A stretch of 64,000 nucleotides of DNA, taken from the NCBI GenBank assembly GCA_029262535.1, contig JAJCZF010000074.1:8395-72394 (forward strand), written 5' to 3'. The DNA is from Deltaproteobacteria bacterium. Its GTDB lineage: Bacteria > Desulfobacterota > GWC2-55-46 > JAJCZF01. Both the position numbers and the translations under genes were made by a program. Shown in pieces: positions 15,679 to 37,494 of the stretch (its first letter is position 1; each line of letters begins with the position of its first letter). The notes beneath the pieces are model-generated. The model was not told the DNA's origin. It saw only the letters and a list, made by a program, of their open reading frames with translations, and searched no databases.

Positions 15679-16797
15679 CTATTCGTATAACTTTTCATTT
15701 ACAAATATATCTACAATTTCGGGGTCTAACTGCGAGCCTGAGACCCTCTTAAGCTCTTCGATTATAACATCCAGGCCGAGCCCCTTTCGATAGGGGCGTG
15801 TGGTGTGCATGGCGTCGAATAGGTCGGCCACAGAGATTATTCTGGCCATTAGCGGAATATCGTCACCCTTAAGTCCACGCGGATAACCCGAGCCGTCGAA
15901 GTTTTCATGGTGAGAGCCGACGACCCTTGCAACCGGCCCCATCAGGGTAATGGATTCAAGTATCTTTTCGCCTACCTGTGAATGTTCGCGCATATGCTGA
16001 AGCTCTTCTTCGGTAAGTCTGCCCTCTTTGTTGAGTATGGCCTCTTTTGTGCTCACCTTGCCGAGGTCGTGCAAGAGGGTAGCGTACTCAAGGACCTCCA
16101 TCTCTTCTTCGGAGAGTTTTAATAGTTGCCCTATCTTTAGGCACAGCTCTTTCATGCGGTCGCAGTGTCCGCGAGTATATGTATCCTTGGCCTCGATGGT
16201 CTCGGCCATGACGCCGACGAACTGCATATTGGCCTCTTTTAAAAGTTCGTTGGCGCGTTTAAGTTCGACCGCCTTTTCGCTAAGCTCTTTTGTGCGTGCC
16301 TTGACTTTATCTTCGAGGTAGAACTGGTACTCTTTGTTTTGCCGCTCAAGTTCCGTGTTTCTCTCAAGAAGGTCTCTGTAGACCAGTGCGCGTTTGATGG
16401 TGTCTAGAAGCTCGGCCTTCTTAACCGGCTTCATGACGTAGTCGAAAGCGCCCTTTTTCATTATATCTATTGCGATGGATATGTCGGTGAGGCCGGTGAG
16501 CATGATGACGGGTACTGTCTCCATATTGGAGCGGACATACTCAAGGACCTTGTATCCGTCGATCTCCGGCATGGTGATGTCTGAAATAACGAGATCGAAG
16601 TTTGCGACGTTAAGGTCGTCATAAACGCGGTTGCCGCCGGGTGACTCAATAACGTCGTAGCCCTCTTTTGCGAGGTGGGTCTTCAGGACCTTGCGTATGA
16701 ACTCTTCGTCGTCTACGATAAAGATAGAGCGCCTTTCAACCGATTCGGTATTGTCGTGGCTCTCTTCTTTTTCCGGTGTCTGGTACCGACTCTCCAT
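15679..16797 (-). CDS. Response regulator with HD-GYP c-di-GMP phosphodiesterase domain (RpfG-like)
   Basis: REC (FIVDDE, DLVISDITMPEIDG), a coiled linker, and HD-GYP motifs LLHDLGK and HHENFDGSGYP. Confidence 0.85.
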   Translation of the reverse strand: MESRYQTPEKEESHDNTESVERRSIFIVDDEEFIRKVLKTHLAKEGYDVIESPGGNRVYDDLNVANFDLVISDITMPEIDGYKVLEYVRSNMETVPVIMLTGLTDISIAIDIMKKGAFDYVMKPVKKAELLDTIKRALVYRDLLERNTELERQNKEYQFYLEDKVKARTKELSEKAVELKRANELLKEANMQFVGVMAETIEAKDTYTRGHCDRMKELCLKIGQLLKLSEEEMEVLEYATLLHDLGKVSTKEAILNKEGRLTEEELQHMREHSQVGEKILESITLMGPVARVVGSHHENFDGSGYPRGLKGDDIPLMARIISVADLFDAMHTTRPYRKGLGLDVIIEELKRVSGSQLDPEIVDIFVNEKLYE

Positions 16798-20919: not shown

Positions 20920-23523
20920 ATGGATTCTCAAAATAAAAAACCCAATGTAAAAGAGTTTTTGCCGCTCGTTCGGAGGCCGTCGCGTTATATCGGCGGGGAG
21001 GCGGGTAGTGTCTTAAAGGACCCTGCTTCGGTTCGGCTTTCCTTTGCGCTTGCTTTTCCCGATACCTATGAGGTTGGTATAAGCCATCTCGGTTGCCAGA
21101 TACTTTATCAGATACTTAGCGCAGAGGCCGACTTCGCCTGCGAGAGGGTATACGCGCCCTGGGGGGACATGGAGGCTTTGTTGCGTGAAAAGGAGCTTCC
21201 GCTAACGGCCCTTGAGAGCGGGCGTGCGCTCTCGGATTTTGATATTCTCGGCTTTTCCATGCAGTACGAGCTCTCTTTTACCAATATCCTAAATATGCTC
21301 GACCTCGGCGGTATCCCACTCCTTCAAAAGGATAGGGGTGAGGGTGACACGCTGGTCATCGGCGGCGGCCCTGCGACATTCAACCCGGAGCCAGTTGCGG
21401 ACTTCTTCGACGCATTCCTTTTGGGCGACGGCGAGGAGGCGATAGTCGATATCTCTAAATGCGTCGCCGACTGTAAAGAAGAAGGTCTTTCGAGAGAAGA
21501 GACGCTTATACGCCTTGCCGGAATCGAAGGCATATACGTGCCCTCTTTCTACGAGATATCTTATAAAGAAGACGGCACGATAGAAGAGATAAGATCTCTA
21601 AAACCTGATCTTGGACCGGTACGTAGGAGAATAGTTAAGGATATCAACGACCTGCCCGACCCGGTAAAACCTGTTGTGCCTATTGTCACGGCTGTGCACG
21701 ACCGCCTTACGGTCGAGATAGCGCGCGGCTGTACGCGTGGATGCCGCTTCTGTCACGCTGGTATGGTGACGCGCCCCATACGCGAGCGCGACCCGCAAAA
21801 GATTATCGATATAGTTAAAGAAGGGCTTCGTAATACCGGTTACGACGAGGTATCGCTACTATCGCTAAGTACCGGAGATTATTGCAATATAGGCCCGGTT
21901 ATAACGGCCCTCATGCAGTCGCTTAAAGAGGAGCGCACATCGGTCTCGCTTCCTTCGCTTCGCGTAGGCACGCTGACCGAAGGGCTAGCCGAAGAGATCA
22001 GGAAGGTCAAGAAGACAGGTTTTACCATGGCCCCGGAGGCCGGGACCGAGCGATTACGCAGGGTTATAAATAAGGTGATAGAAGAGGACGCGCTTGTAGA
22101 TATCGCAAAGACGGTCTACGAGCTTGGCTGGCGTTCGATAAAACTATATTTCATGATAGGCCTTCCGACCGAGACAAAGGGAGATATCGACGGCATAATA
22201 GGGCTAGCCGATCGAGTGCGAGCGGCATCGGGACAGCCAAGGCCCAAATTCAAGAAGAAGAAACCCGCGCGAAATACCCCGGTAAATGTCAGCGTCGGCA
22301 CATATGTACCAAAGCCCTTTACGCCATTTCAGTGGGAAGCGCAGATATCGCTCGACGAAACCTATGAGAGACAGCGCAAGTTGCGCGGCGAGGTCGAGTC
22401 CCTTGGCCTGAGCTTTAAGTGGAACGACGCAAAACTCTCCAACCTCGAAGGGGTTTTTTCAAGGGGCGACCGCAGGCTTGCCAATGCCGTGCTTGGGGCC
22501 TTTAATAAGGGCGCGCGTTTCGACGGCTGGAGCGAATGCTTTAAGAACGACCTCTGGCAGGAGGTCTTTGTCGAAGAGTTCATAGATGTAACTTTTTACA
22601 CAACGCGCAGGCGCGATCGCAAAGAGATACTTCCCTGGGACCATCTCGACTGTGGTGTTACTAAAGAGTTTTTATTAAAAGATCTCGACCTGGCCCTTGC
22701 CGAAGAGGAGACGCCAGACTGCAAGACCTCTCGCTGTACCGACTGCGGGGTCTGCGATTTTAAAGAGATTAAGAATATCGTTTCAGAGTTAGCTGAATCG
22801 CTTGACGGACATACTGTGAAGAGGCGGCCCGCGCCTGACGTGCCGGGCCTGAAGGCGCGTCTTAAGTTCACAAAGAGGGGACCGATAAGGCTTGCGGGCC
22901 ACCTTGAGCTGATGACGACCGTTTCGAGAGCTATCCGGCGTGCGCGCCTTCCGGTGGCCCATTCGGCGGGCTTTCATCCGCACCCCAAGATAAGCTTTTC
23001 AAACCCCCTTCCGGTCGGTATGGAGAGTGACGCGGAGTATATGGATATTGAATTTACCTGTCCCGTTACCGTGGCCAATCTGCCCGACAGGCTCAACCGC
23101 GTACTACCCGACGGACTGCGTTTTATAGAGGCATCCGTTATTGGCTTGAAAACTCCTGCGCTCTCTGCTACTATGAAGGGTAATGAGTATTTAATTGATG
23201 TTACGAACGGCCCCGCGGATGCGGAGGGCCTGGGAATAGATTTTATAGAGTTAGAGCGTCGTATCGAGTCATTTCTCGCAAAAGATCAAATACCGATCAC
23301 TGTGAGAAGAAAAGAAAAGCTAAAGGAGCTGGACCTAAAACCCTTTATAGACTCAATTTTGCTTGAAGACGAGAGTAAGATTAGGCTCGTCTTGAAAACG
23401 TCTGTCGGTCTTGGACGCGAAGGTGGGGGTGTGAAACCTCATGAATGTATAACAGCCCTTCTCAACCTCCGGCCCGAAGACGCCCTCTTAATTCCCATCC
23501 TGAAGACCCGGACCGTTCTTTAG
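20920..23523 (+). CDS. B12-binding radical SAM protein fused to a radical-SAM-associated C-terminal domain (TIGR03960 + TIGR03936-like)
   Basis: Radical-SAM CTRGCRFC after a B12-like N-domain, a basic linker (KFKKKKPARN) and a DUF2344-like C-terminal half. Its position immediately upstream of an RNase E/G gene is typical of this family. Confidence 0.7.
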   Translation: MDSQNKKPNVKEFLPLVRRPSRYIGGEAGSVLKDPASVRLSFALAFPDTYEVGISHLGCQILYQILSAEADFACERVYAPWGDMEALLREKELPLTALESGRALSDFDILGFSMQYELSFTNILNMLDLGGIPLLQKDRGEGDTLVIGGGPATFNPEPVADFFDAFLLGDGEEAIVDISKCVADCKEEGLSREETLIRLAGIEGIYVPSFYEISYKEDGTIEEIRSLKPDLGPVRRRIVKDINDLPDPVKPVVPIVTAVHDRLTVEIARGCTRGCRFCHAGMVTRPIRERDPQKIIDIVKEGLRNTGYDEVSLLSLSTGDYCNIGPVITALMQSLKEERTSVSLPSLRVGTLTEGLAEEIRKVKKTGFTMAPEAGTERLRRVINKVIEEDALVDIAKTVYELGWRSIKLYFMIGLPTETKGDIDGIIGLADRVRAASGQPRPKFKKKKPARNTPVNVSVGTYVPKPFTPFQWEAQISLDETYERQRKLRGEVESLGLSFKWNDAKLSNLEGVFSRGDRRLANAVLGAFNKGARFDGWSECFKNDLWQEVFVEEFIDVTFYTTRRRDRKEILPWDHLDCGVTKEFLLKDLDLALAEEETPDCKTSRCTDCGVCDFKEIKNIVSELAESLDGHTVKRRPAPDVPGLKARLKFTKRGPIRLAGHLELMTTVSRAIRRARLPVAHSAGFHPHPKISFSNPLPVGMESDAEYMDIEFTCPVTVANLPDRLNRVLPDGLRFIEASVIGLKTPALSATMKGNEYLIDVTNGPADAEGLGIDFIELERRIESFLAKDQIPITVRRKEKLKELDLKPFIDSILLEDESKIRLVLKTSVGLGREGGGVKPHECITALLNLRPEDALLIPILKTRTVL

Positions 23524-25174: not shown

Positions 25175-26320
25175 GTGGATCGGTTTCTGCTATATAGGCG
25201 GGTTGGTCTAACTATATCAAAAATATTATATATTGGAGGTCGTACGATTAATACACACGCACATAAGGCGAGGTTGCTCGTCGTTGACGATATGGCGACT
25301 GAACGCGCCATGGTAAAGGCTATCTTTAAAGGTCCCGACTATGAGGTTATCGAGGCCAAAAACGGCGAAGAGGCCCTCGAAATACTTCGCACGAGTGACA
25401 TCGATACCGTGCTTTTAGATGTTATGATGCCGGGCATGGACGGTTTTGAGTTATGCAGGCATATACGGCTAGATACGGCCTTAAAGCTACTGCCGGTCAT
25501 AATGCTCACTTCTCTCGATAGCGCCGCAGACATCAGAAGCGGCATGGAGGCCGGGGCGAGCGAGTTTATCTCCAAACCTGTTAACCGTATAGAAATAGAG
25601 GCCCGAGTGAGCGGCGCTATCACCCTTAAACGCGTGACGGATCAGCTCGTCGATGCCGAGACCATACTCTTTACCATAGCAAGGGTGGTGGAATATCGTG
25701 ACTACTCGACCGGCGCTCACTGCGGCAGGCTCTCTCAGATGGCCGATGTCTTTGGTCGTTCTCTCGGTCTCAGGGAGGTAGATATTGAGTCGCTCAAGCG
25801 CGGCGCGGTGATGCACGATATCGGCAAGGTCGGCATATCCGACTCCATACTTGCCAAGAACGGGCCGCTTACCGACAAGGAATGGCTCATAATGCAGACC
25901 CACACCATAATCGGCGCAAAGCTTCTGGATCGCCTCAAGAAGATGGCCCCGGTCATAGAGATTATTCGCCACCACCATGAAAGATATGACGGCACGGGTT
26001 ATCCCGACGGCCTGTCGGGCGAAGATATCCCATTCCTCGCAAGGGTCTTTCAGATCATGGATATTTACGACGCGCTCTCCTCCAAGAGACCCTATAAAGA
26101 GGCCTATGCAAGAGAGATCGTAATAGAAAAGATGAAATCCGAGACCGACGACGGCAAGTGGGACCCGAAGCTTATGAAGGCTTTTCTATCGATACTTATA
26201 AATAAGCCTGAGGCCTTTGATTACGATGTAGATTCGGCTCACCTGGACTGGAAAGACGATATCGCGGAGATAATGAAAACCCACGGTCACGACTATACCG
26301 CTGGCATGGATGAGAACTAA
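25175..26320 (+). CDS. Response regulator with HD-GYP domain
   Basis: REC (LLVVDD, DTVLLDVMMPGMDG, SKP) plus MHDIGKV and HHHERYDGTGYP. The GTG start is uncertain. Confidence 0.8.
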   Translation: MDRFLLYRRVGLTISKILYIGGRTINTHAHKARLLVVDDMATERAMVKAIFKGPDYEVIEAKNGEEALEILRTSDIDTVLLDVMMPGMDGFELCRHIRLDTALKLLPVIMLTSLDSAADIRSGMEAGASEFISKPVNRIEIEARVSGAITLKRVTDQLVDAETILFTIARVVEYRDYSTGAHCGRLSQMADVFGRSLGLREVDIESLKRGAVMHDIGKVGISDSILAKNGPLTDKEWLIMQTHTIIGAKLLDRLKKMAPVIEIIRHHHERYDGTGYPDGLSGEDIPFLARVFQIMDIYDALSSKRPYKEAYAREIVIEKMKSETDDGKWDPKLMKAFLSILINKPEAFDYDVDSAHLDWKDDIAEIMKTHGHDYTAGMDEN

Positions 26321-26344
26321 GAGCCTCTATCGCGGAGTTATATT

Positions 26345-26935
26345 TTGCTGGTAATCAAGAAAGGCGAGTCTGCCGCCAATGTCGGGGCACAAGCCGCTCC
26401 ACAGAGATGGGATGGCGCTGGCGATGGCGGCGCAGATAAGACAGAACCGCTTAGAGCCGTGCTTGAATTTACCTTGTCCTCCATGAACTTTTGCGCCGAT
26501 CTCATGGATGTCCACAAGATCTTGCCCTTTATGAAGTATATGCCCTCTCCTGCCGGTCCTACGTACCTTGTTGGTTTTATTAACTTTCACGGCGAGAGCG
26601 TTCCGCTCATCGACATGGCCGAGCGCCTCGGTATGGAACGCGCTACGCCCTACGGGTTAGATACTCCGGTCCTGATAGTAAAGGACAGCGAGAGGCTTTC
26701 GGCTCTTGTAGTGGACGATGTCGCCGCCATATCCGAGTCCGGCGACGGCGCGGTGAGGTTGGGTCAGGCTGTCGGCATTAAGCCTTTTAAGAACGTAGTA
26801 TTTACTACATCAGGCTCCATGTCGTTACTTGTCGACATGGGCGCTCTTACCAGGTTTGAAGGTGACGACGAGTATCTGAAAGTGAATTTAGTGGAGCTTA
26901 ACGAATTTATTAAGAGCGCAAAGACAAGGCTTTAA
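26345..26935 (+). CDS. cheW: CheW-like coupling protein
   Basis: CheW domain (VLEFTLSSMNFCADLMDVHKI..LVGFINFHGESVPLIDMAERLG). The TTG start is tentative. Confidence 0.7.
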   Translation: MLVIKKGESAANVGAQAAPQRWDGAGDGGADKTEPLRAVLEFTLSSMNFCADLMDVHKILPFMKYMPSPAGPTYLVGFINFHGESVPLIDMAERLGMERATPYGLDTPVLIVKDSERLSALVVDDVAAISESGDGAVRLGQAVGIKPFKNVVFTTSGSMSLLVDMGALTRFEGDDEYLKVNLVELNEFIKSAKTRL

Positions 26936-26952
26936 TTTTTTACGGATAAGAG

Positions 26953-28533
26953 ATGGCGGAAAAGTCACAAAAAACGGGAAATGGCGTGGCGGGTCTCTCC
27001 GCGGAGATGGAGGAGGCGGTCTGCAATTTTATTCTCAAAAAGACCGGCATAGTCATTCACGATCACCAACTTCCAAATCTCGCTACCAGTATAGAACGCG
27101 GCGCCAGCCACTTTGGCTTTAAAACTGTAGGTGGTTATGTTCAGGCCCTTGAAGGCTGCGGCAGCGTTTCGCCGGAGTTGGAATTCCTGGTTTCGGCTAT
27201 AACTGTCGGAGAGAGCTACTTCTTCCGCGATTCGGAACAGATAGAGTTTCTACGGGATAAGTGGCTTCCGGAGATTATTGCCAGGAAGCGGGCGAGCGGG
27301 GATAAATCCATACGTATATGGAGCGCGGGTTGTTCCGGCGGTCAGGAGATATATACCCTCGCAATACTGCTTTCGGAGGCCATGGTTGATATCAAGGATT
27401 GGCGTATACACTTGCTCGGGACCGATATCAATACCGAGGCGCTTTCGGAGGGTATAAAGGCGAATTATAGAAAGTGGTCCTTTCGTTCAACTCCTGACAA
27501 GATCAGGGAGAAGTATTTTACGCCCAGCGGGGAGCGTTTTGTTATCAACCCGGACCTTCGGAGGCTTGTAAAGTTCTCTTACCTTAATCTTAGAGACGAT
27601 AGCTACCCGTCGATGCTCTCGGAGACGACATCGATTGATTTGATCCTCTGCAGAAATGTATTTATATATTTCAACAGGGAAGTTATAGAAGAGGTTTTGG
27701 AAAAATTCTCTTTGACCTTGAATGCGGAGGGCGTGCTGCTTCTAGGGGCCTCGGATGTTATAAACTTAACCGTGTCCGGCCTTGTGATGCGCCACTTCAA
27801 GAAAACCTTTTTCTATGAACATGGAATAAAGGAAGAGGCTCCGGAGCCCGCGGCGAAGGTTCCTGTAAAGGTTGAGCAAAAGAGATATCCACACGCGCCT
27901 AAAGATGGGTTGGAACCAAGGTCTAGATCAGGACTTGGGCCAGTGGCGAAACGTTCCGGGCCGGCGGTTGCGCCGCCAGTTAAGAAGCAGGCCACCCCCC
28001 CCGGTGATGACCCGGCCACGACATATCCTGAGTTGATAGAGCTTGACCGTAGCGCGTCTTGGGCGGAGCTTCCCGATGCGGTAGACAGGATAATAAGGCG
28101 TGACGGGGAGACAGAGTTTCTGCTTTGCATGAAGGCCAAGGCCCTTGCTAACAGAGGAGAGCTTAAGAGCGCCCTTAAGGTTTGTAACAGGGCGATAGAG
28201 ACGGACCCCGTCGGTAAACACAGCTACTTTATAAAGGCTATGACTCTGATGGAGCTTGACAGATCCGCGGATGCCATGGAGATGCTTAGAAAGGTCATCT
28301 ATCTGGATCCATACTTTCTGGAGGCGCATTTCCAGATGGGACTTTTACATATAAGGTCCGGTAATATAAAGGCCGGGCTAAAGAGCCTTAATAACGCTCT
28401 CGACCTTGCCAAAAAGGGCGACCCTGAAAGAAAGCTTCACACCGCGCCGGAGATGAATTATGGCAGGCTCGTGGATGTTCTGAAAAATGAGATAAGCATA
28501 TTCGAGGCCCAAAACAATAAGCGGTCTGTCTAA
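26953..28533 (+). CDS. cheR: CheR methyltransferase with C-terminal TPR repeats
   Basis: SAM-binding IRIWSAGCSGGQEIYTLA and LILCRNVFIYF, a Pro/Ala-rich linker, and TPR-like helices at the C-terminus. Confidence 0.85.
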   Translation: MAEKSQKTGNGVAGLSAEMEEAVCNFILKKTGIVIHDHQLPNLATSIERGASHFGFKTVGGYVQALEGCGSVSPELEFLVSAITVGESYFFRDSEQIEFLRDKWLPEIIARKRASGDKSIRIWSAGCSGGQEIYTLAILLSEAMVDIKDWRIHLLGTDINTEALSEGIKANYRKWSFRSTPDKIREKYFTPSGERFVINPDLRRLVKFSYLNLRDDSYPSMLSETTSIDLILCRNVFIYFNREVIEEVLEKFSLTLNAEGVLLLGASDVINLTVSGLVMRHFKKTFFYEHGIKEEAPEPAAKVPVKVEQKRYPHAPKDGLEPRSRSGLGPVAKRSGPAVAPPVKKQATPPGDDPATTYPELIELDRSASWAELPDAVDRIIRRDGETEFLLCMKAKALANRGELKSALKVCNRAIETDPVGKHSYFIKAMTLMELDRSADAMEMLRKVIYLDPYFLEAHFQMGLLHIRSGNIKAGLKSLNNALDLAKKGDPERKLHTAPEMNYGRLVDVLKNEISIFEAQNNKRSV

Positions 28534-28546
28534 AAGGGATCTTACT

Positions 28547-29161
28547 GTGACCGAGAAGGAAAATGATAAAAAGGACGATTCGGTGTCCGGCGGAGCCAGG
28601 GTTTTAACACCAAGCCCGTTTGATAGTTTTACACAGCATGAGCGAGATATATTGCAGGCGCGCGCCCTTCAATATGCGGCGCGCGAGGTTGTCGAAGAGC
28701 GTAGTACTATTCCCTATATCCGTTTTCGTCTTGGCGGCACGGAGCACTACGGTGTGCCTTATGAGATCTCAGATGAGGTCATGCCCTTTACCGGGCTCTC
28801 CGGCGTGCCGGGCACGCCGGACTTTGTAGCAGGTGTGGTGAATCGCAGGGGAAAGCTAACGACAGTTATTGATCTGAAGAGTTTCTTTAAGGTCAGGGGT
28901 GTTGGTAATAGTAACGAAGAGAGCGTGGTTATCGTAAGTAGCGAGGGCCTGACGGTAGGTTTTTTAGTGGATGAGATAATCGGTTACGACGAGTTCGACC
29001 CTGCCGGGTTATCAAAACCGCTCTGCTCGGAAGGGGTCACGGAGATTAAATACGTCCTTGGTATTTACGAGGGAATAGTTACCATGATAGATGTCCTGAA
29101 CCTGCTTGCAGACCCGGCGATATTGGTTGGAAAGCCGGGGCAGGACAGCGCTTGGGGTTAG
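28547..29161 (+). CDS. cheW: CheW-like coupling protein
   Basis: CheW domain (YIRFRLGGTEHYGVPYE..VAGVVNRRGKLTTVIDLKSFF). GTG start. Confidence 0.8.
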   Translation: MTEKENDKKDDSVSGGARVLTPSPFDSFTQHERDILQARALQYAAREVVEERSTIPYIRFRLGGTEHYGVPYEISDEVMPFTGLSGVPGTPDFVAGVVNRRGKLTTVIDLKSFFKVRGVGNSNEESVVIVSSEGLTVGFLVDEIIGYDEFDPAGLSKPLCSEGVTEIKYVLGIYEGIVTMIDVLNLLADPAILVGKPGQDSAWG

Positions 29162-29237
29162 AAGGTTTTTGATAATAGTTTTATATATCTATATATGAAA
29201 AGAGCGCAATATTAAATATTAGAGGAGGAGCCACAAT

Positions 29238-31427
29238 ATGAATTTTCTCGCAAATACGCGGATCAAGAACAAACTTATCATTATGCTTATCATCCCGGTA
29301 GTAGGGCTTTTATACTTCTCGGTTTCGGGTTTTGTGGATAAGCTTCGGGTCGCGGGCGAGATGGATTCGCTCCAGGAGCTATCGGCCCTCTCTGTTAAGG
29401 TAAGCGAGTTTACTCACGAGCTTCAAAAGGAGCGTGGCAGGACCGGCTCTTTTCTTTCAAGCGGCGGCAAGACCTTTGCAAAGGAACTGGAGGCGCAGAG
29501 GGCTCTCACAGATGAGAAGCTGACGAATCTGAACAGTTACCTGGTTGGTTTTGGCAAGTCGGGCTTCGGTGATGAGTTTTCTACGACGCTCAATATCGCC
29601 CTGTCGGCTGTATCGGGCTTAGGGGTTGAGCGCGCCTCCATAAGCCAACTCAAGATTAAGAGCGCTGACGCCATTAACTTTTATTCCGAAATAAACGAAA
29701 GAATGCTCGACGTCATAACCTCCTCAGCCACAATAACTACAAGTACGCGTATTTCCGGTCACCTTTCAGGGTACTATTTTCTCCTGAATAAGAAGAATAA
29801 TCTTGGGCTTGAGAGGGCCATTTTAAGCAAGGTCTTCCTGAACGATAGTTTTACCCCTGAAACGCGTACCGCCTACGATAAAGTCGTAAAGGCGCAGGAA
29901 ATATATATGCGTCAGTTCTTCTCTTACGCGAGCCCTGAACAGAGAGACCTTTTGAGGGATACGCTCAAGGGGCGTGCCGTGGAAGAGACCGCAAGGCTCA
30001 GGGCAATAGCTATTGAAAAGGAATATGTCGGAGGCTTCGGCGTGGACCCCGGCCAGTGGTTTGATACCGTAACGGGTGAGATAGATCTCCTTAAAAATGT
30101 CATAGGAAGTATCTCGCAAGAGCTTGACTCCGATACCGAAGCGATGAGGGCCGCCGCCAATACCGGCCTAATCGTCTTTGCCATAATCATAATAGTCTCC
30201 ATAATAGTCACCTTCGGGCTGGCAATAAATATTACGCGTAATATCTCAAGGCAGGTTCGCGACCTGGTCGAATCGATAACCGACCTTGCGAGGGGCAACC
30301 TTTCAAGACGTGTAAATGTGACGAGCGCCGACGAGATAGGTCAACTCGGCGAGGCCCTTAACGATATGGGGCAGAAGATCGAGGAGAGCGCCGAACGCGA
30401 GCGCCGTCAGGCCGAGCGCGAACGAGACGCGGCCAACCAGCTTAAGCAGGGGGTCGAGATTATACGCGAAGGTGTCGGCAAGATCTCAACCGGTGACCTT
30501 AGGCATCAGTTCAGGATTTCGGGTAATGACGCTCTTTCGGAGCTTTCCGGCCACTTGAATGGAATGTCTGCGAGCCTTGCCGGTATGGCGGCTGAAGTAA
30601 GCGAGGCGAGTGGGGCCTTGAATAGCGCCATAACCGAGGTTCAGAGTTCCGTGACGGCGCAGTCGTCTGGAACCTCCGAGCAGGCGGCTTCAATTAATGA
30701 GACCGTTTCGACGCTCGAAGAGATAAGGGCTACGAGCAAGCAGACGCAAGAAAAGGCCATGACGCTTGGAAGCTCGGCTGAGCGTACGCGAGAAGAAGGC
30801 GTGCGCGGCGCCGGTTCCGTCGAGGATACGGTCGAGGCCATGTTGTCCATACGTGGCAAGGTTGAGTCGATTGCAGAAAATATACTGGCTCTAAGCGAGA
30901 AGACTCAGCAGATAGGCGAGATAACAACGACGGTAAATAACCTGGCGCAGCAGCTTAAGATGCTCGCCCTCAACGCCTCTATCGAGGCCAGCAAGGCAGG
31001 CGAGGCAGGAAAGGGCTTTGCCGTTGTCGCGGCAGAGGTCAGGGAGCTTGCCGAGCAGTCGCACCAGTCCACTCAGCAGGTTCAAAAGATTCTTCAGGAT
31101 ATCCAGAACGCCACTGAAAGGGCCGTCATGGTCACCGAAGAGGGCACCAAGGGTGTTGACGAAGGCGTTTTTCTTGTTGAGCAGACCGGTTCCATCATAT
31201 CGAGCCTCTCCAAGGTTATTAGCGAGAGCGCGATAGCGAGTCAGCAGATAGTGGCGGCCGTAAGGCAGGAGGGCGCGGGCATCGACCAGATAGCCACGGC
31301 GATGACCGACATTAACAAGGCCACCAGCCAGTCGGTTTCGTCCACACAGCAGACGATGGAGGCCGTGCGTAACATGGGCGAGATAGCGGCCAAGTTAAAA
31401 GAGAGCGCCGGGGTCTACAAGGTATAA
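29238..31427 (+). CDS. Methyl-accepting chemotaxis protein with NIT (nitrate/nitrite-sensing-type) domain and HAMP
   Basis: N-terminal TM, a NIT-like region (HELQKERGRTGSFLSSGG), a second TM, HAMP, and the invariant signalling hairpin LALNASIEASKAGEAGKGFAVVAAEVRELAEQS. Confidence 0.85.
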   Translation: MNFLANTRIKNKLIIMLIIPVVGLLYFSVSGFVDKLRVAGEMDSLQELSALSVKVSEFTHELQKERGRTGSFLSSGGKTFAKELEAQRALTDEKLTNLNSYLVGFGKSGFGDEFSTTLNIALSAVSGLGVERASISQLKIKSADAINFYSEINERMLDVITSSATITTSTRISGHLSGYYFLLNKKNNLGLERAILSKVFLNDSFTPETRTAYDKVVKAQEIYMRQFFSYASPEQRDLLRDTLKGRAVEETARLRAIAIEKEYVGGFGVDPGQWFDTVTGEIDLLKNVIGSISQELDSDTEAMRAAANTGLIVFAIIIIVSIIVTFGLAINITRNISRQVRDLVESITDLARGNLSRRVNVTSADEIGQLGEALNDMGQKIEESAERERRQAERERDAANQLKQGVEIIREGVGKISTGDLRHQFRISGNDALSELSGHLNGMSASLAGMAAEVSEASGALNSAITEVQSSVTAQSSGTSEQAASINETVSTLEEIRATSKQTQEKAMTLGSSAERTREEGVRGAGSVEDTVEAMLSIRGKVESIAENILALSEKTQQIGEITTTVNNLAQQLKMLALNASIEASKAGEAGKGFAVVAAEVRELAEQSHQSTQQVQKILQDIQNATERAVMVTEEGTKGVDEGVFLVEQTGSIISSLSKVISESAIASQQIVAAVRQEGAGIDQIATAMTDINKATSQSVSSTQQTMEAVRNMGEIAAKLKESAGVYKV

Positions 31428-31431
31428 GTCC

Positions 31432-33753
31432 GTGGAATTTGATAAAGAGACATTAAAGTTACTGGTCGATACGTTAGAGGGTGAATTAACAGACCAGATA
31501 GAGATCATAACCGACGGCCTTTTAAAGCTTGAAAAGGGTCCTTCGGGAGACGAGCGCCGTTCTTCGCTCGAGGCAATCTTCAGGGCGGCTCATAATATCA
31601 AGGGAGCGGCCCGTGGCGTTGGTGTTTCGACCGTTGCCGAGATATCGCATCACATGGAAACATTTTTTAGCGCCCTTAAACACAAAAATATGAATCCCGA
31701 ACCTGAACATATAGACCTCTGTCTTGAGGCCGTGGACCGTATGACCGAGGCTATGAGCGCCTTTGCGGATGAGACGCCGGACTCTTTTGACGCCAAGGAA
31801 CTATATAACAGGCTCGACCAGGCTATAGCGTCGGGTAGGTCTACAAAGGATCAGGTTTCGAAAGAGGAAACCGCGCCACCCAAAAAAAAAATTAAAGAAA
31901 GAGCTGTAGCCACCCCATCTTCCGTGGCACCTCCCTTGCCGGAACCGGATAGAGTTCAGGCGGGTAAATTAAAAAAAGAAAAAGAGGGCGAGGCGAGGCC
32001 TGCCGCGCATGTTTCAGCGGCTGTTGAGGCCATAAAGGTTACAGTTGATAAGATAGAAAAGATCGGAGCGCTTACCGAAGAGCTCCAATCGGCAAAGATA
32101 GAGAGCGAAGATCACCTGAAGGATCTGAAGGGGGTCGCCATAAACGCCCGCGAGCTTGCGACGAGTTTTTCCATGATCAACCCGGTCGTAAAGGGCGAGA
32201 TGAGAAGGAGACTCTCCCCGGACGCAGTGGCCTTTGTCGATGAGACCATGGAGACGGTGGCGACGCTTAGCGAGAATGCCGCAAGGGTCTCCAAGGCGGT
32301 CGAGAGCGCGGTGAATAGTTTAGGTCTTGTTACGTCGTCACTCGTTAACGATACAAGGATGCTCCGGTTGGTTCCGGCCTCGACATTATTAAATTCGGCG
32401 GGAAGGACGATTCGCGATCTTGCCCGCGAGCTTGGCAAAAAGGTAGATATTGAGATAAACGGCGCCGAGATAGAGATGGACAGGGCGGTGCTCGACGGCC
32501 TTAGGGACCCACTGAATCACCTGCTCAGAAATGCCGTGGATCACGGTATTGAGCCCCCTCTTGAAAGGATTAAGGCCTTTAAGCCTGAGACGGCGAAGGT
32601 GATAATAGATCTTGAGGGCCGGGGCAGCACCATCATATTATTTATAGAAGACGACGGTGGCGGTATCGACGCCGGCAAGATTCGCGCCGCCGCGGTAAAG
32701 AAGGGCGTTACGACTGAGACCGAGGCCGAGCGCCTTAGCGACGAAGAGGTGATAAATTTAATCTTCCGTCCCGGTTTCTCATCAAAGGAGATCGTGACGA
32801 ATATCTCGGGCCGGGGCGTCGGCCTTGATGTGGTTGGCACTAACCTTCACAGGCTCAAGGGCTCGGTCGCCGTAAGCACGGAGTTTGGCTCGTGGACGCG
32901 TTTTACGCTTACGCTACCGTTAACGCTCGTAACCGAACGGGGACTGATGGTGCGCGCCGGGGGCGCGGAGTTTGTTATCCCGACCAACTCGGTAAACAAG
33001 GTGATGGAAATCGGGCCGGACGATATAGTCGATGTGGAGGCGAGCCAGGCGCTCTTGATAGACGGTGTGCCTATCCCCATACGAGGACTTGCGACCGCTC
33101 TTGGGCTCGAAGAGAGAGAGCCTGCTTCCTCAAAAAGGCTACCGGTGGCGGTGCTTTCGGGTGTGCGGGGTTCGGTGGCCTTCCTGGTGGAAGAAGTCGT
33201 CGGCGAGCGCGAGATAGTTATCAAGACGCTTGAACCGCCACTATATTCGGTAAGAAATATAACCGGGGCGACCCTCACGGGTCGCGGTGAGATAATAATG
33301 GTCCTTAACCCGATCGACCTGGTTGAGAACGCCCTTGGCACAGGACTCAGCGACAGGCTCTTTGATGAGCCGGGCGAGGACGAAGAGCAAGAGATAGAGA
33401 TCCTGGCGGTGGACGACTCTGTTACGACCCGGACGCTTCTCAAAAGTGTGCTTGAACATAGCGGTTATACCGTGACCACAGCCGTTAACGGTAAAGAGGC
33501 GTGGGAGATTTTACAGAAGAAAAGATTTGATCTTATAGTTACCGACTTGCAGATGCCAATCATGGACGGCTTTGAGTTTACCGAAAGGGTAAAGACGAAC
33601 GAAAAGTTCAAAGAGGTCCCTGTTATAATGGTTACCTCGCTAACGAGCGAAGAGGATAAAAAACGCGGCATCGAGGTCGGAGCCGACGCATATATTGTAA
33701 AGGCCCAGTTTGAAAGCAGGGCGCTTTTAGAGGTAATAGAGCAGTGGGTATAG
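31432..33753 (+). CDS. cheA: Hybrid CheA histidine kinase with C-terminal receiver (WspE-like)
   Basis: Hpt AHNIKGAARGVG, N-box HLLRNAVDHGIE, G-boxes DDGGGID and GRGVGLDVV, a CheW-like domain, and REC (ILAVDDS, DLIVTDLQMPIMDG). Confidence 0.9.
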   Translation: MEFDKETLKLLVDTLEGELTDQIEIITDGLLKLEKGPSGDERRSSLEAIFRAAHNIKGAARGVGVSTVAEISHHMETFFSALKHKNMNPEPEHIDLCLEAVDRMTEAMSAFADETPDSFDAKELYNRLDQAIASGRSTKDQVSKEETAPPKKKIKERAVATPSSVAPPLPEPDRVQAGKLKKEKEGEARPAAHVSAAVEAIKVTVDKIEKIGALTEELQSAKIESEDHLKDLKGVAINARELATSFSMINPVVKGEMRRRLSPDAVAFVDETMETVATLSENAARVSKAVESAVNSLGLVTSSLVNDTRMLRLVPASTLLNSAGRTIRDLARELGKKVDIEINGAEIEMDRAVLDGLRDPLNHLLRNAVDHGIEPPLERIKAFKPETAKVIIDLEGRGSTIILFIEDDGGGIDAGKIRAAAVKKGVTTETEAERLSDEEVINLIFRPGFSSKEIVTNISGRGVGLDVVGTNLHRLKGSVAVSTEFGSWTRFTLTLPLTLVTERGLMVRAGGAEFVIPTNSVNKVMEIGPDDIVDVEASQALLIDGVPIPIRGLATALGLEEREPASSKRLPVAVLSGVRGSVAFLVEEVVGEREIVIKTLEPPLYSVRNITGATLTGRGEIIMVLNPIDLVENALGTGLSDRLFDEPGEDEEQEIEILAVDDSVTTRTLLKSVLEHSGYTVTTAVNGKEAWEILQKKRFDLIVTDLQMPIMDGFEFTERVKTNEKFKEVPVIMVTSLTSEEDKKRGIEVGADAYIVKAQFESRALLEVIEQWV

Positions 33754-33778
33754 TTCTTCAGGAAGGACATATGAGCAT

Positions 33779-34825
33779 ATGATCAGGATTTTGATAGTAG
33801 AAGATTCGAATGTCGTTGCGTTGCTGTTGAAGGCAATCTTTGAGAAGGCGCCGGATATGGAGGTCATTGGGCGCGCAAGCGACGGGGCAGAGGCCGTGGA
33901 GTTGAATAATACACTCCGTCCCGACCTGATAACCATGGACATTCGAATGCCGCTTATGGACGGTTTCGAGGCCACGCGTAATATTATGGCCGACAGGGCT
34001 ATTCCCATAGTGGTCATAAGCGCAAGCGTGGACGACGAAGAGATGCGTACTACGTTCCGGGCCATAGAGGAGGGCGCTCTCGCCGTCATTGAGAAGCCGC
34101 GCGGGGTGCTTCATGAGGATTTTGATAAGATAAGCACAAACCTCATCGAGACGGTACGCGCCATGAGTGAGGTTAAAGTCGTACGCCGGGTTGCAAGGCA
34201 GACGCAGCAGCAATTTACTCCTCAGTCGAGGCCTGTAAAGCGAAAGGATTTAGCCGCCATCGAGCTGATTGCGATAGGCTCGTCGACCGGCGGTCCGCAG
34301 GCCCTTCAGACCATACTTTCGTCGCTTCCAAGGGATCTTGCCGTACCTATAGCCATTGCGCAGCATATGTCCCAGGGCTTCCTGGGCGGCATGGTGGACT
34401 GGTTAAAACTCAATGCGTTGCTTGATATAAAGGTAGCAGTGGATGGAGAACCGCTAAAGAACGGCGTTGTCTATTTTGCCCCGGAGGATAAGAATCTGAA
34501 CTTTATCCGTTCGGGCGGTTCTATACATGCCTCCGTGATGGAACCAGCGCCAACGGATCGCTTTGTCCCCTCCGCAACGGCGCTAATTAGCTCTGCGACA
34601 GATGTCTGCGGCAGGGGGGCGGTCGGAGTCGTCCTGAGTGGGATGGGCAACGACGGAGCCGAAGGCCTGTTGGAGCTTAAGAGGGCAGGCGGCCATACGA
34701 TCATTCAGGACGAAAAGAGTTCGGTTGTATTTGGAATGCCCGGCTCTGCGTTGGCGCTTGATGCCGTGGAAAAGATTGTCGAACTGCATTTGATGGCGCC
34801 TTACATATCCAGTCTTTTAAGATAG
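33779..34825 (+). CDS. cheB: CheB protein-glutamate methylesterase (REC + esterase)
   Basis: REC (ILIVEDS, DLITMDIRMPLMDG) plus esterase motifs GSSTGGPQAL, QHMSQGF and GMGNDGA. Confidence 0.9.
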   Translation: MIRILIVEDSNVVALLLKAIFEKAPDMEVIGRASDGAEAVELNNTLRPDLITMDIRMPLMDGFEATRNIMADRAIPIVVISASVDDEEMRTTFRAIEEGALAVIEKPRGVLHEDFDKISTNLIETVRAMSEVKVVRRVARQTQQQFTPQSRPVKRKDLAAIELIAIGSSTGGPQALQTILSSLPRDLAVPIAIAQHMSQGFLGGMVDWLKLNALLDIKVAVDGEPLKNGVVYFAPEDKNLNFIRSGGSIHASVMEPAPTDRFVPSATALISSATDVCGRGAVGVVLSGMGNDGAEGLLELKRAGGHTIIQDEKSSVVFGMPGSALALDAVEKIVELHLMAPYISSLLR

Positions 34826-34833
34826 ATCAGAGG

Positions 34834-35268
34834 GTGAGAAGGCTAAATAAAAAGGATGCGGCCTCAATATTTAAGGCCTACAAGAAAGAGTTAGCGGAGC
34901 GTACCACCCGTCTTAATGTCGCACTAAAGGGTGTGGGGCGGGAGGGGCCTGGCGAGGGGCTCTTTGATATTATTCATCAGGAGTTCGACAGCCTCAGCGG
35001 CGCATCAAGGGCAGCGAATCTTACAAGGCTTGAAGAAGTCTCTCGACAGGCAGCTTCTTTTGCCAGACTTTTGAGAAACAAGGTAAAAGAAGGCGTTGAG
35101 GTAGAGAAGGAATTCGCAGTCTTGAGACTTCTTTGTGTGGAGCTCGGGGCGCTTTCTTTAGCCATGGACCACGACGCGGCCCCTGATTGGCCCGCAGAGC
35201 CGGGTGAGAAGCTTGGCAGCGCACTTGTAGAGATAGATCAATACCTTCGAGTGCGTGACCGGGAATAA
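34834..35268 (+). CDS. Hypothetical helical protein, possible Hpt-like phosphotransfer module
   Basis: The 144-aa protein looks helical. IIHQEFDSLSGASRAANL loosely resembles the Hpt HxxKG motif. GTG start. Context is the only other support. Confidence 0.35.
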   Translation: MRRLNKKDAASIFKAYKKELAERTTRLNVALKGVGREGPGEGLFDIIHQEFDSLSGASRAANLTRLEEVSRQAASFARLLRNKVKEGVEVEKEFAVLRLLCVELGALSLAMDHDAAPDWPAEPGEKLGSALVEIDQYLRVRDRE

Positions 35269-35367
35269 ACCTATTGATTTTGTGCTATTATTGTGTGAAA
35301 CTATATTTTGCGAAATACCGTATGGACTATAGTTTTATGGAAATTTTAACCGTTGGAGATATCTTCC

Positions 35368-35721
35368 ATGAGGATCCTCATAGTTGACGATAGCATAACT
35401 TCAAGGTTGCTCTTTAAGGCCAACCTCCCGCCCGGATTGGAAGTCGATCTGGACGAGGCAGGCGCATGCGAAGGGGCCTTGTTGAAGATCGCCGACAATG
35501 AGCCCGATCTAATATTTCTTGACTATAACCTGCCGGGAAAGAACGGTGTAGAGATAGCCCGCGCCATACGGGCTGCCGGGTGCCAGGGCAAGTTCGTACT
35601 GCTTACCGCAAACCTTCAAAACAGCATAGTGGACGAGGCCAAGGAAGTGGGTTTCGTTGCGGTTCTGGAAAAGCCCATTACGCGGGAGAATGTGGAATAT
35701 ATTCTTAGCGAGATAGGTTGA
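35368..35721 (+). CDS. cheY: CheY-like single-domain response regulator
   Basis: MRILIVDDS, DLIFLDYNLPGKNG and EKP. I prefer ATG 35368, with GGAG 9 nt upstream, over TTG 35353. Confidence 0.8.
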   Translation: MRILIVDDSITSRLLFKANLPPGLEVDLDEAGACEGALLKIADNEPDLIFLDYNLPGKNGVEIARAIRAAGCQGKFVLLTANLQNSIVDEAKEVGFVAVLEKPITRENVEYILSEIG

Positions 35722-35722
35722 T

Positions 35723-36322
35723 ATGGAGCTTACCGAAGCACAACTGGACGCCTTAAAAGAGATTGCCAACATAGGCATAAGCAGAGCGGCGACGCAGCTC
35801 TCTCTTCTTTTGAGCGATAAGATAGTGATGAATGTGCCCAATGCGCGTATCACTCTTTTGTCCGAGGCATCTAAAACGCTAAATACCACGGATGAAGATA
35901 TGGCCGTGGTCTATCAGGATCTCTCCGGCGAGCTTGCGGGACGCGCCCACCTGGTTCTTAATACCGAGGAAAGCAAGGTCCTCGTCCATGCCCTTCTCGG
36001 TAATGTGCCAACGCTTAGCGGGGCCGACCTTCTGGCCTACGAACACGAGGCGATGACCGAGATCGGCAACATCGTCATCTCTACCTGTATCTCCACGCTC
36101 GGCAACCTGCTTGACGGCGAGATCTTTCTTACAGTCCCCACTTATTCTGAAAAATCAGCTCTCGATATGTTCGCCGGCGGCGGTAAGGCCAAGGATGTGC
36201 TTATAATGGAGACCGTGCTTAAGGCCACCAATAAGAATGTCGAAGGTATGCTCGTCTTGGTATTAACGCTTGAATCGGCAACGGACCTTCTCGATATGCT
36301 CTCCGGGTTACTTGACAGCTAA
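35723..36322 (+). CDS. cheC: CheC/CheX-family CheY-P phosphatase
   Basis: Two ExxN sites in the typical context: LKEIANIGISRAATQLS and MTEIGNIVISTCISTLG. Confidence 0.7.
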   Translation: MELTEAQLDALKEIANIGISRAATQLSLLLSDKIVMNVPNARITLLSEASKTLNTTDEDMAVVYQDLSGELAGRAHLVLNTEESKVLVHALLGNVPTLSGADLLAYEHEAMTEIGNIVISTCISTLGNLLDGEIFLTVPTYSEKSALDMFAGGGKAKDVLIMETVLKATNKNVEGMLVLVLTLESATDLLDMLSGLLDS

Positions 36323-36380
36323 GCGGCCCTTAAGAAGAGTAAATATAGACTCTGTGCTAAGGTAACTACTGGATTATACT

Positions 36381-37331
36381 ATGGAATCTGAGCTTCCGGT
36401 TAAGGATATTGTCAGCAGGTTGCCCATTGGTGTTTTTGTTCTGGATGTCAATCATAAGATACGGCTCTGGAATAAGTGGCTTGTCGATAAGACATCAATG
36501 GCCGAGCAGGAGGTTTTGGGTAAGACCCTCTCCGAGTTATACGTCGGCCTTAACCACCATCGTTTTACCTGGGCCGTTGATCATGTTATCGCCAACAGAT
36601 CTCCGCAGATCCTGAGCCAGGCCCTTAATAGTTATATCATCCCCATACATGTCGAAACGCACGGTCCGCGTAATATTGAGTTTATGCAGCAGTACGTGCA
36701 GATAGAACCTGTCACCACTCATGGTCACGTGTATGCAGTGGTTAGCGTGGTGGATGTTACCGAGTCCATGGTGCGTTCGTCAGCTCTCGCGGACCTTACT
36801 ACAAAATATCAGCAAGAGTCCATAGTCGACCCTCTTACCGGCCTTTACAACAGGCGTTTTATGTGGGGCTGGCTGGTGCCTCAGCTCAACCTGGCCAGGA
36901 GGGAAGAGGCTTCGCTCGGGTGCATTATTATCGATATCGATCACTTTAAACGCTTAAACGACGACTTTGGCCACGATGTAGGAGACAAGGTCCTCAAGAG
37001 CTTTTCAAGGTTACTGAAGGGCGGGCTCCGCGATTCGGACATTATGGTGCGTTACGGTGGAGAGGAGTTTGTCGTGCTACTTCCGTCCATCGATCTCTCA
37101 GGCGCAAATGGTACCGCTATGAGGCTTATAGAGAGGCTTCGCACCACCGCTTTATCTAACTTTAAGGTAGGCGAGATTTCATGTAGCATGGGTGTCTCCT
37201 CTTTTGATCCTAATGACCCCATAAGCGGCGAAGAACTTATCAAATTTGCCGATAATTGCCTCTACCGGGCCAAGGAGACGGGTCGCAACCGGGTCGTCTC
37301 AATGGCTGATATCGAAAAAGAGTCCGAGTAG
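36381..37331 (+). CDS. PAS-GGDEF diguanylate cyclase
   Basis: N-terminal PAS-like domain, active site RYGGEEF, and an I-site RDSD exactly five residues upstream of GGEEF. Confidence 0.85.
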   Translation: MESELPVKDIVSRLPIGVFVLDVNHKIRLWNKWLVDKTSMAEQEVLGKTLSELYVGLNHHRFTWAVDHVIANRSPQILSQALNSYIIPIHVETHGPRNIEFMQQYVQIEPVTTHGHVYAVVSVVDVTESMVRSSALADLTTKYQQESIVDPLTGLYNRRFMWGWLVPQLNLARREEASLGCIIIDIDHFKRLNDDFGHDVGDKVLKSFSRLLKGGLRDSDIMVRYGGEEFVVLLPSIDLSGANGTAMRLIERLRTTALSNFKVGEISCSMGVSSFDPNDPISGEELIKFADNCLYRAKETGRNRVVSMADIEKESE

Positions 37332-37398
37332 CGCCCGAACACCCTTCCCGGTTCAGTATTTCCAGCCTTCTTATCCAAAAAATCCTTTTGTTTTCTGA

Positions 37399-37417
37399 CT
37401 GTTTATGATATAAACAG
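37399..37417. promoter_or_regulatory. Perfect 8-bp-arm inverted repeat CTGTTTAT-gat-ATAAACAG (candidate operator)
   Basis: Read directly. It lies in the AT-rich 163-nt gap, 78 nt upstream of the TPR/beta-barrel gene start. Confidence 0.35.
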
Positions 37418-37494
37418 TGCCGTATGAGTAGTAGTAGTTTCTTTTCTTTTTTCTGTTAATGATTCGAAAATATTATTGAAAACGGGATTATTTA

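Follow-up and report, generated by a model that had tools for sequence, protein, structure and literature searches.

A conserved chemosensory gene cluster with two predicted c-di-GMP output modules in a Deltaproteobacteria bacterium

What does a chemosensory pathway act upon when its gene cluster carries enzymes predicted both to make and to degrade cyclic di-GMP (c-di-GMP), and ends just in front of the genes for a porin and a 6,991-aa protein? This question is raised by eleven genes at positions 25175-37331 of a 64,000-nucleotide stretch of DNA, referred to below as the window (contig JAJCZF010000074.1 of assembly GCA_029262535.1, Deltaproteobacteria bacterium). Chemosensory control of c-di-GMP is known almost wholly from the Wsp pathway, with its single fused REC-GGDEF output, and a sequence-only reading of the window had assigned the cluster to the Wsp type and considered it to feed into the giant-protein locus. 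Judged by its gene content and the phylogeny of its kinase, the cluster is a chemosensory system of the alternative cellular function (ACF), non-flagellar type and not a Wsp orthologue. We consider it probable that such a pathway has the cellular c-di-GMP level as its output. The cluster is genuine and conserved, and as an ACF-type pathway with dual c-di-GMP outputs it would be a variant that appears not to have been described before.

Class and ancestry of the cluster

The cluster encodes, in this order, a REC-HD-GYP response regulator, a CheW, a CheR with tetratricopeptide repeats (CheR-TPR), a second CheW, a chemoreceptor, a hybrid CheA-REC, a CheB, a small Hpt-like protein, a CheY-like receiver, a CheC and a PAS-GGDEF protein. 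The limits, shared direction, tight spacing and domains that had been read from the sequence agree with the list of open reading frames (ORFs) and their translations (intergenic gaps of 1-84 nt), and Pfam recovered the proposed domains in all eleven genes, although the Hpt domain of gene 8 stayed below threshold. The full set was also found in loci L034 and L122 and large portions of it in L032, L036, L038, L039, L121 and L137, with identities of 36-57% for all components. The position of a phosphodiesterase and a cyclase at opposite ends, which had been pointed out as unusual, is likewise conserved in L034, L122 and L137, all from other phyla. Considering the identical gene set and order in unrelated metagenome-assembled genomes (MAGs), the cluster is far beyond a chance run of ORFs.

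The closest relatives are scattered over the bacterial tree. Among 40 genomes of the same family or order the best CheA match had merely 36% identity, and these genomes were dismissed as carriers, as only a sister type with a REC-PAS-kinase output was present. The best matches in the global protein set (~50%) came from Planctomycetes/Brocadiaceae, Gallionella, Nitrosomonas, Methylospira and Motiliproteus, and a scan of named genomes returned distant CheAs only (best Treponemataceae, 33%). A metagenome scan using very general peptide patterns recovered the broad CheA-REC family (28-36% identity) and not the close clade; this set was used for comparison and gave one close locus, L039. The patchy distribution is consistent with an old horizontal spread or with differential loss. 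The cluster shows no anomaly in GC (0.516 versus 0.509 for the genome) or GC3, and any horizontal acquisition was therefore not recent.

The phylogeny of CheA was based on 113 sequences, made up of the window CheA, the four other CheAs of the genome, 14 database matches and the CheAs of around 95 fetched loci. The window CheA falls in a clade of 23 rows (SH-aLRT 100) together with every locus that shares its accessory genes. This clade is nested in one of 61 rows (support 98), which keeps the order CheW, CheR-TPR, CheW, receptor, CheA-REC, CheB wherever the flanks are long enough. The loci with a Wsp layout, metagenome loci that served as proxies for the named WspE, form a clade of their own (support 100, with a long stem of 1.2) adjacent to the ChpA-type pilus kinases. 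According to Pfam this layout starts with a 4HB_MCP_1 receptor, followed by CheW, CheR, CheW, CheA, CheB and a REC-GGDEF protein of ~340 aa; a genuine REC-GGDEF of that size was present in L070, L075 and L087, and the receptor of L070 is a 4HB_MCP_1. The proposed Wsp identity consequently holds in part. The hybrid CheA-REC, the CheR-TPR, the two CheWs and the c-di-GMP enzymes are there, but a REC-GGDEF is not, the gene order is another one, the sensor is a NIT domain and the CheA belongs to a different clade. Given the separate CheA clade and the different layout, the cluster is Wsp-like in logic, not a Wsp orthologue.

The hallmarks described for ACF clusters (PMC3447774) are CheR-TPR proteins and REC regulators with several domains, among them fusions of REC with a metal-dependent phosphatase (HD) domain. 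Both the CheR-TPR and multidomain receiver outputs are present here and no motility genes were found nearby. We base the proposed ACF placement on these two features. NCBIfam gave only generic CheA/CheB matches and no equivalog-level names for the cluster proteins. The absence of flagellar and pilus genes from the window, which had been remarked upon before, agrees with the ten largest upstream ORFs, which comprise housekeeping genes along with a porin, a PAS kinase and one more REC-HD-GYP. ACF systems usually come without auxiliary CheC, CheD, CheX, CheZ or CheV, which is a tendency and not a strict definition; the conserved CheC of the cluster departs from it.

The core of the pathway, like the rest of the cluster on the + strand, starts with a CheW coupling protein at 26345..26935 (Pfam CheW, E 8e-19), followed by the CheR methyltransferase at 26953..28533 (Pfam CheR, E 4e-46), which carries C-terminal repeats (TPR_8/TPR_2/TPR_1, residues 390-487), and the second CheW at 28547..29161 (E 7e-22). 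The transmembrane chemoreceptor (29238..31427) has a periplasmic NIT domain (residues 58-296, E 4e-49), a HAMP domain (332-383) and an MCPsignal domain (514-695). Its hairpin-tip motif GEAGKGF begins at residue 588, after which ~140 residues (20 heptads) remain to the C-terminus; judged by the length of this hairpin arm, the receptor is consistent with a class of at most 40 heptads. The hybrid kinase (31432..33753; Pfam Hpt, HATPase_c, CheW and REC) combines a P1/Hpt domain, a kinase domain, a CheW-like P5 and a receiver, and an alignment of 25 sequences shows no variation at its His54, in the N/G1/F/G2 boxes or at the receiver Asp705. In L137, taken together with L136 from a contig of Logan SRR23136762, the CheA (L137:14731-17009) was called as two overlapping ORFs, an Hpt protein of 206 aa and a kinase-CheW-REC protein of 572 aa, which could reflect a frameshift or assembly error, or else a truly split P1. 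The core ends with the CheB methylesterase (33779..34825; CheB_methylest, E 3e-52), which has an N-terminal receiver and exceeds the cut-off of an NCBIfam CheB subfamily. The phospho-accepting Asp is present in every REC domain of the cluster, and the translations show that the acidic pocket, the Thr/Ser and the Lys are kept in each receiver.

Two output modules and a P1-like small protein

Going by the distribution of the accessory genes over the homologous loci, the core appears to be joined by two separable output modules, of which module A consists of the REC-HD-GYP and the small Hpt-like protein (below, pseudo-Hpt) and module B of the CheY-like receiver, CheC and PAS-GGDEF. The REC-HD-GYP gene, at 25175..26320, encodes a predicted c-di-GMP phosphodiesterase (Pfam REC, residues 35-145, and HD_5, 173-333; REC+HD_5/HD, E 1e-32) with intact HD and HHERYDGTGYP (HHExxDGxGYP) motifs. 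The GTG start of the gene creates an N-terminal extension of ~30 residues (window 25175-25270) that is lacking in the orthologues of 350-365 aa, and the actual start may lie further downstream. An assignment to the 'NosR family' of phosphodiesterases in NCBIfam was rejected, since the best match, at 165 bits, fell short of the cut-off of 400. The pseudo-Hpt gene (34834..35268) specifies 144 aa. Module A was found in the window and in L034, L036, L039, L122 and L137, where the REC-HD-GYP orthologues share 49-57% identity and form part of the homologous clusters; L032, L037, L038 and L121 do not have it. This amounts to a co-occurrence of the two genes in 6/6 versus 0/4 loci (Fisher p ~0.005, for loci that are not independent). 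L137 was selected as a test of the predicted pairing and contained both genes; between the window and its sister locus L032 the two differ together.

Module B begins with the single-domain CheY-like receiver (35353..35721; Pfam REC, E 1e-16), in which D12/D13, D57, T85 and K107 are present and whose stop lies 1 nt ahead of the CheC start. The CheC-family protein (35723..36322; PF04509, 47.5 bits versus a cut-off of 22) retains both E-x2-N-x22-P sites (DALKEIAN...P and EAMTEIGN...P) and is predicted to be a CheY-P phosphatase or an adaptor. It is followed by the PAS-GGDEF diguanylate cyclase (36381..37331; GGDEF, E 3e-43, with an N-terminal PAS). The cyclase has a GGEEF signature and, exactly 5 residues before it, the RDSD I-site that had already been recognized as intact. 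Module B is present in the window, L032, L034, L038 and L122. L121 has the receiver joined to the C-terminus of the methylesterase; this protein (L121:8958-10004) is effectively a CheB-catalytic/CheY fusion, as its receiver is most similar (49%) to the module B CheY-like protein. In L039 the receiver and CheC are kept and a rhodanese gene takes the place of PAS-GGDEF. Module A occurs without module B in L036 and L137, and module B without REC-HD-GYP and pseudo-Hpt in L032, L038 and L121.

The genes of module B usually overlap (by 4-8 nt between REC, CheC and PAS-GGDEF in L032, L034 and L038). Orthologues of the PAS-GGDEF protein (43-50% identity) follow CheC in L032, L034, L038, L120, L121 and L122, and the close CheC homologues nearly always have a PAS-GGDEF gene directly behind them. 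In a Burkholderiales MAG (L120) the pair, with overlapping genes, stands alone, without CheA or CheY nearby. A second stand-alone module B resides in the same genome as the window (contig C9:39919-45697, equal to L131:3920-9698, minus strand), with no CheA nearby. It comprises overlapping genes for a REC protein of 119 aa, a CheC of 210 aa and a PAS-GAF-PAS-GGDEF protein of 619 aa, and two DUF3391-HD-GYP genes lie behind them.

The small protein of module A had been regarded as part of an extra Hpt/REC/CheC relay. The genes concerned are real and conserved, but the 'Hpt' has an Asp where the phospho-accepting His is expected, which makes a classical phosphorelay through it unlikely. Its match to the Pfam Hpt family (PF01627; E 0.004, 17.8 bits) is below the cut-off of 24.6 bits, the same holds for 4/5 of the homologues tested, and no other Pfam family matched. 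An exhaustive search of 1.8 billion representatives recovered no more than 22 homologous clusters. Within the alignment of these 22 sequences Q49, E50, D52, G56 and R59 are invariant (QExD motif), and H48 is conserved in ~90%, with a Tyr in two members. In a profile-profile alignment with the P1 domains of the window CheA clade (probability 79%), Asp52 falls on the phospho-accepting CheA His54. The AlphaFold model (pLDDT 90.7) has five helices, and its top PDB matches in Foldseek were the CheA P1 structures 1i5n and 3kyj, the latter a CheA3-P1/CheY6 complex (TM 0.66-0.73 and probability 0.99-1.0, at an E-value of only ~0.1). In L039, L122 and P0141 the small protein is fused to the module B receiver. 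From the modelled fold and these fusions we conclude that it is probably a P1-derived pseudo-Hpt that contacts receiver domains.

How the pseudo-Hpt would affect a receiver can be suggested by analogy. An acid and an amide residue, one helical turn apart on a receiver-facing helix, constitute the design of the receiver phosphatases CheZ, CheC/CheX and Spo0E. The acid and amide pair in QExD resembles that of these known phosphatases and renders a phosphatase role plausible; a role as a decoy or anti-kinase, akin to AHP6 of plants, is equally plausible. A Spo0E-like identity was discarded, as no Pfam Spo0E match was obtained at E up to 10. Our most far-reaching proposal remains tentative, and is perhaps rather doubtful: the pseudo-Hpt could represent an undescribed CheA-P1-derived family of dedicated REC-HD-GYP regulators (a receiver phosphatase on an Hpt scaffold, or an anti-kinase decoy), which together with the CheC-coupled PAS-GGDEF would let a chemosensory array control c-di-GMP in a push-pull manner, each branch having its own reset device.

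Output of the pathway and its alternatives

The gene content, the motifs, the fold of the small protein, the conservation and co-occurrence of the modules and the phylogenetic placement are directly supported by the data above. For the ligand, the phosphorylation partners, the sign of the two branches and the precise roles of the pseudo-Hpt and CheC, we infer the following from how the genes are ordered, overlap, are fused and co-occur. The NIT receptor, a nitrate/nitrite sensor as predicted from its domains, would form arrays with the two CheWs and CheA-REC, and would be adapted by CheR-TPR and CheB. His54 of the CheA P1 would hand phosphate to several receivers. Within module A, the REC-HD-GYP would act as a phosphorylation-controlled c-di-GMP sink, and the pseudo-Hpt may dock on the receiver and tune this branch by blocking phosphotransfer or hastening dephosphorylation. 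Module B would correspond to a split form of a REC-GGDEF regulator, where the synthesis of c-di-GMP may depend on the receiver and its state, with CheC either resetting that state or reading it out.

Several observations weigh against such a pathway with two phosphorylation-controlled outputs. The PAS-GGDEF protein lacks a receiver, and its control by the phosphorelay therefore follows from gene order and overlap only. The orthologous clusters swap in or add receptors with protoglobin and CHASE3 domains, and the NIT ligand is a prediction. The near-invariant His48 of the pseudo-Hpt, located one helical turn before Asp52, could act as an unconventional phospho-acceptor, and the partner of the protein is ambiguous, as it tracks the REC-HD-GYP yet is fused to the module B receiver in some loci. 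Finally, a search of the literature yielded no description of a CheC/PAS-GGDEF or a pseudo-Hpt/HD-GYP module. In an alternative arrangement only the REC-HD-GYP branch would be regulated, the CheY-like receiver and CheC would serve as a phosphate sink similar to DifD/DifG, and the PAS-GGDEF would be controlled independently by a PAS ligand and do no more than supply a local pool of c-di-GMP. Such sinks of CheY and CheC are documented for Dif. In line with it, the cyclase has a sensor domain of its own and no receiver, and the intact I-site suggests that its synthesis is self-limiting; Dif-like CheY/CheC clusters have been discussed before (PMC2577667). We nevertheless hold this arrangement to be unlikely. 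CheC and PAS-GGDEF are found together, as overlapping genes, even where neither CheA nor CheY is near (L120), which argues for a direct relationship between CheC and the cyclase rather than a kinase sink, and in the clusters without REC-HD-GYP (L032, L038, L121) module B is the sole output. The pairing of CheY with CheC is also more typical of flagellar systems, where it is the classic arrangement in Bacillus and Thermotoga, and the genome encodes FlhA; these points, too, count against an ACF-type assignment. They could mean that the cluster mediates motility chemotaxis, with the single-domain CheY and its CheC phosphatase acting on the flagellar motor; the c-di-GMP genes would then be neighbours that have no direct link to it. 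The best NCBIfam match of CheC, to the Thermotogales CheC model, fits this as well, although it is below the cut-off of that model. However, the kinase is a hybrid CheA-REC accompanied by a CheR-TPR, the non-hybrid CheAs of the genome (on contigs C82, C53 and C71) fall outside its clade, PAS-GGDEF follows CheC in 8/10 loci of the CheC subfamily, some of which lack a che core nearby, and flagellar genes were not found among the ten largest upstream ORFs of the window. A flagellar role is accordingly very improbable.

The remaining alternative concerns the genes downstream. The spacing reported earlier was confirmed, since the stop of the GGDEF gene at 37331 and the porin start at 37495 leave 163 nt, an AT-rich spacer (37332..37494) that marks the boundary of the conserved cluster. 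Conceivably, the chemosensory cluster belongs to a single functional unit or operon together with the porin and the 6,991-aa protein, in which the c-di-GMP of the cluster controls the production or display of the giant protein, comparable to the control of giant adhesins by c-di-GMP that is established elsewhere (Lap system). The genes share a strand and are separated by this short spacer only, in which no terminator-like hairpin was found on the + strand and where the counts of a promoter/terminator scan were at shuffle level. The spacer also contains a perfect 21-bp palindrome (37398-37418, ACTGTTTAT-GAT-ATAAACAGT), unique in the genome, that could serve as an operator or form a weak hairpin. 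Furthermore, a second-messenger enzyme is the usual neighbour of the porin and FecR-head genes, as these adjoin a nucleotide cyclase in relatives. Local co-transcription or read-through across the gap may occur. Against a single unit stands the fact that none of the nine close loci, all with several kb of downstream sequence, has a porin/FecR-head gene after the last che gene, and that domain searches of around 90 broader CheA-REC loci gave no porin/FecR match. In relatives of the same order the porin orthologue is on other contigs than the nearest CheA-REC cluster, or 350 kb away. There, a FecR-head protein follows the porin, and the pair is flanked in 4/7 loci (L124, L125, L127 and L130, from genomes G008, G027, G024 and G007) by a CHASE2 adenylate/guanylate cyclase, and not by a GGDEF protein; the single CHASE2 gene of the window genome (C48:26649-27743) is not beside the porin/FecR pair. 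Rfam detected no c-di-GMP (GEMM) riboswitch or other family in either leader or anywhere else in the window, and a LapG-type periplasmic protease (PF06035) was not found in the 88%-complete genome, while the control genome of Caulobacter gave a match. The giant protein itself, with its FecR head and Sec-type context, is unlike the layout of a type I secreted adhesin. The proposal that the cluster feeds into the giant-protein locus is thus not supported, and a joint unit is in our opinion quite unlikely; the porin and giant-protein genes most likely represent a separate module. The locus is probably not a target of the pathway and belongs with CHASE2-cyclase signaling.

Genomic setting and comparison with known systems

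The genome of 2.2 Mb, in 87 contigs, is rich in signaling genes for its size. The RNase G gene, which precedes the cluster at a distance of 96 nt, has its nearest named relatives in uncultured Deltaproteobacteria/Thermodesulfobacteriota MAGs (65-73% identity). There are at least five CheA-like genes, on C74 (the cluster studied here), C87, C53, C82 and C71, together with around 20 GGDEF proteins, at least seven further REC-HD-GYP paralogues and four PilZ proteins. C87:9000-28000 holds a further cluster of the CheR-TPR/CheA-REC kind, which has a REC-PAS-kinase as its output and includes a HAMP-PAS-GAF-HD-GYP gene. The cluster at C53:20000-38909 has a non-hybrid CheA, and its last gene encodes a REC-HD-GYP (349 bits versus gene 1), whereas C82:83000-93500 looks like the motility cluster. 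Some 8 kb upstream of the cluster another REC-HD-GYP (15679-16797, minus strand) lies beside a PAS histidine kinase (13479-15275, minus strand). A radical-SAM gene (Radical_SAM_N2-type) is found near the cluster in the window (20920-23523, upstream, same strand) as well as in the Planctomycetes locus L032 (16303-19158, downstream, opposite strand); this shared neighbour is probably a coincidence.

The cluster would offer an alternative to the single fused output of Wsp, in which a phosphorylatable HD-GYP sink has a P1-like protein as its partner and the cyclase is coupled with CheY and CheC, and it is conserved across Thermodesulfobacteriota, anammox Planctomycetes, iron oxidisers, nitrifiers and methanotrophs. 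Given the NIT and protoglobin receptors of the orthologous clusters, the pathway may connect the sensing of nitrate/nitrite and of O2/NO to biofilm formation or aggregation in organisms of the nitrogen cycle. The pseudo-Hpt, being compact and easily purified, is a candidate for a new mode of receiver-domain regulation.

Among the known systems, Wsp of Pseudomonas (WspABCDEFR) has in common with the cluster the hybrid CheA-REC, the CheR-TPR, two CheWs, the CheB, one dedicated receptor and, as proposed for the cluster, an output in c-di-GMP rather than motility. It differs in its REC-GGDEF output (WspR), whereas the PAS-GGDEF in the window is preceded by a separate receiver and CheC, and the REC-HD-GYP phosphodiesterase and the pseudo-Hpt are additional here. 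The receptor gene comes first in Wsp but after the second CheW in the window, where the order is response regulator, CheW, CheR, CheW, receptor, CheA, CheB; the loci with a Wsp layout moreover have a 4HB sensor instead of NIT, and a CheA of another clade. Closer in layout are the Che3-type clusters with a REC-histidine-kinase output, which we take to be of the Rhodospirillum centenum CheS3 type. They likewise consist of CheW, CheR-TPR, CheW, receptor, CheA-REC, CheB and then an output regulator, as seen in L022-L027 of the same order, on the genome's own contig C87 and in Motiliproteus (L037), but their output is a REC-PAS-HisKA-HATPase hybrid kinase in place of two c-di-GMP modules. The Dif pathway of Myxococcus xanthus resembles the cluster in being a non-motility pathway with a matrix-type output, in which a single CheY (DifD) and a CheC-type phosphatase (DifG) modulate the flow of phosphate. 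Its CheA is not a hybrid, it lacks a CheR-TPR/CheB pair of the kind seen here, and its cluster contains no c-di-GMP enzymes. Dif-like clusters use 44H receptors with a short periplasmic part (PMC2577667). The pseudo-Hpt shares with AHP6 of Arabidopsis the lack of a phosphorylatable His at the canonical position, and with the P1 of Rhodobacter CheA3 (PDB 3kyj) the stand-alone five-helix fold of a CheA P1 in a small protein. Unlike these, it has an invariant Asp in Q-E-x-D and belongs to a family of 22 clusters that is tied to chemosensory loci with a REC-HD-GYP and sometimes fused to a receiver. The downstream TPR-porin and FecR-head genes, in turn, are the counterpart of the pair that adjoins CHASE2 genes in relatives, comparable to the NsrA-CyaK type of porin and CHASE2 cyclase, with the difference that the pair abuts a chemosensory cluster here and that the CHASE2 gene is located on contig C48.

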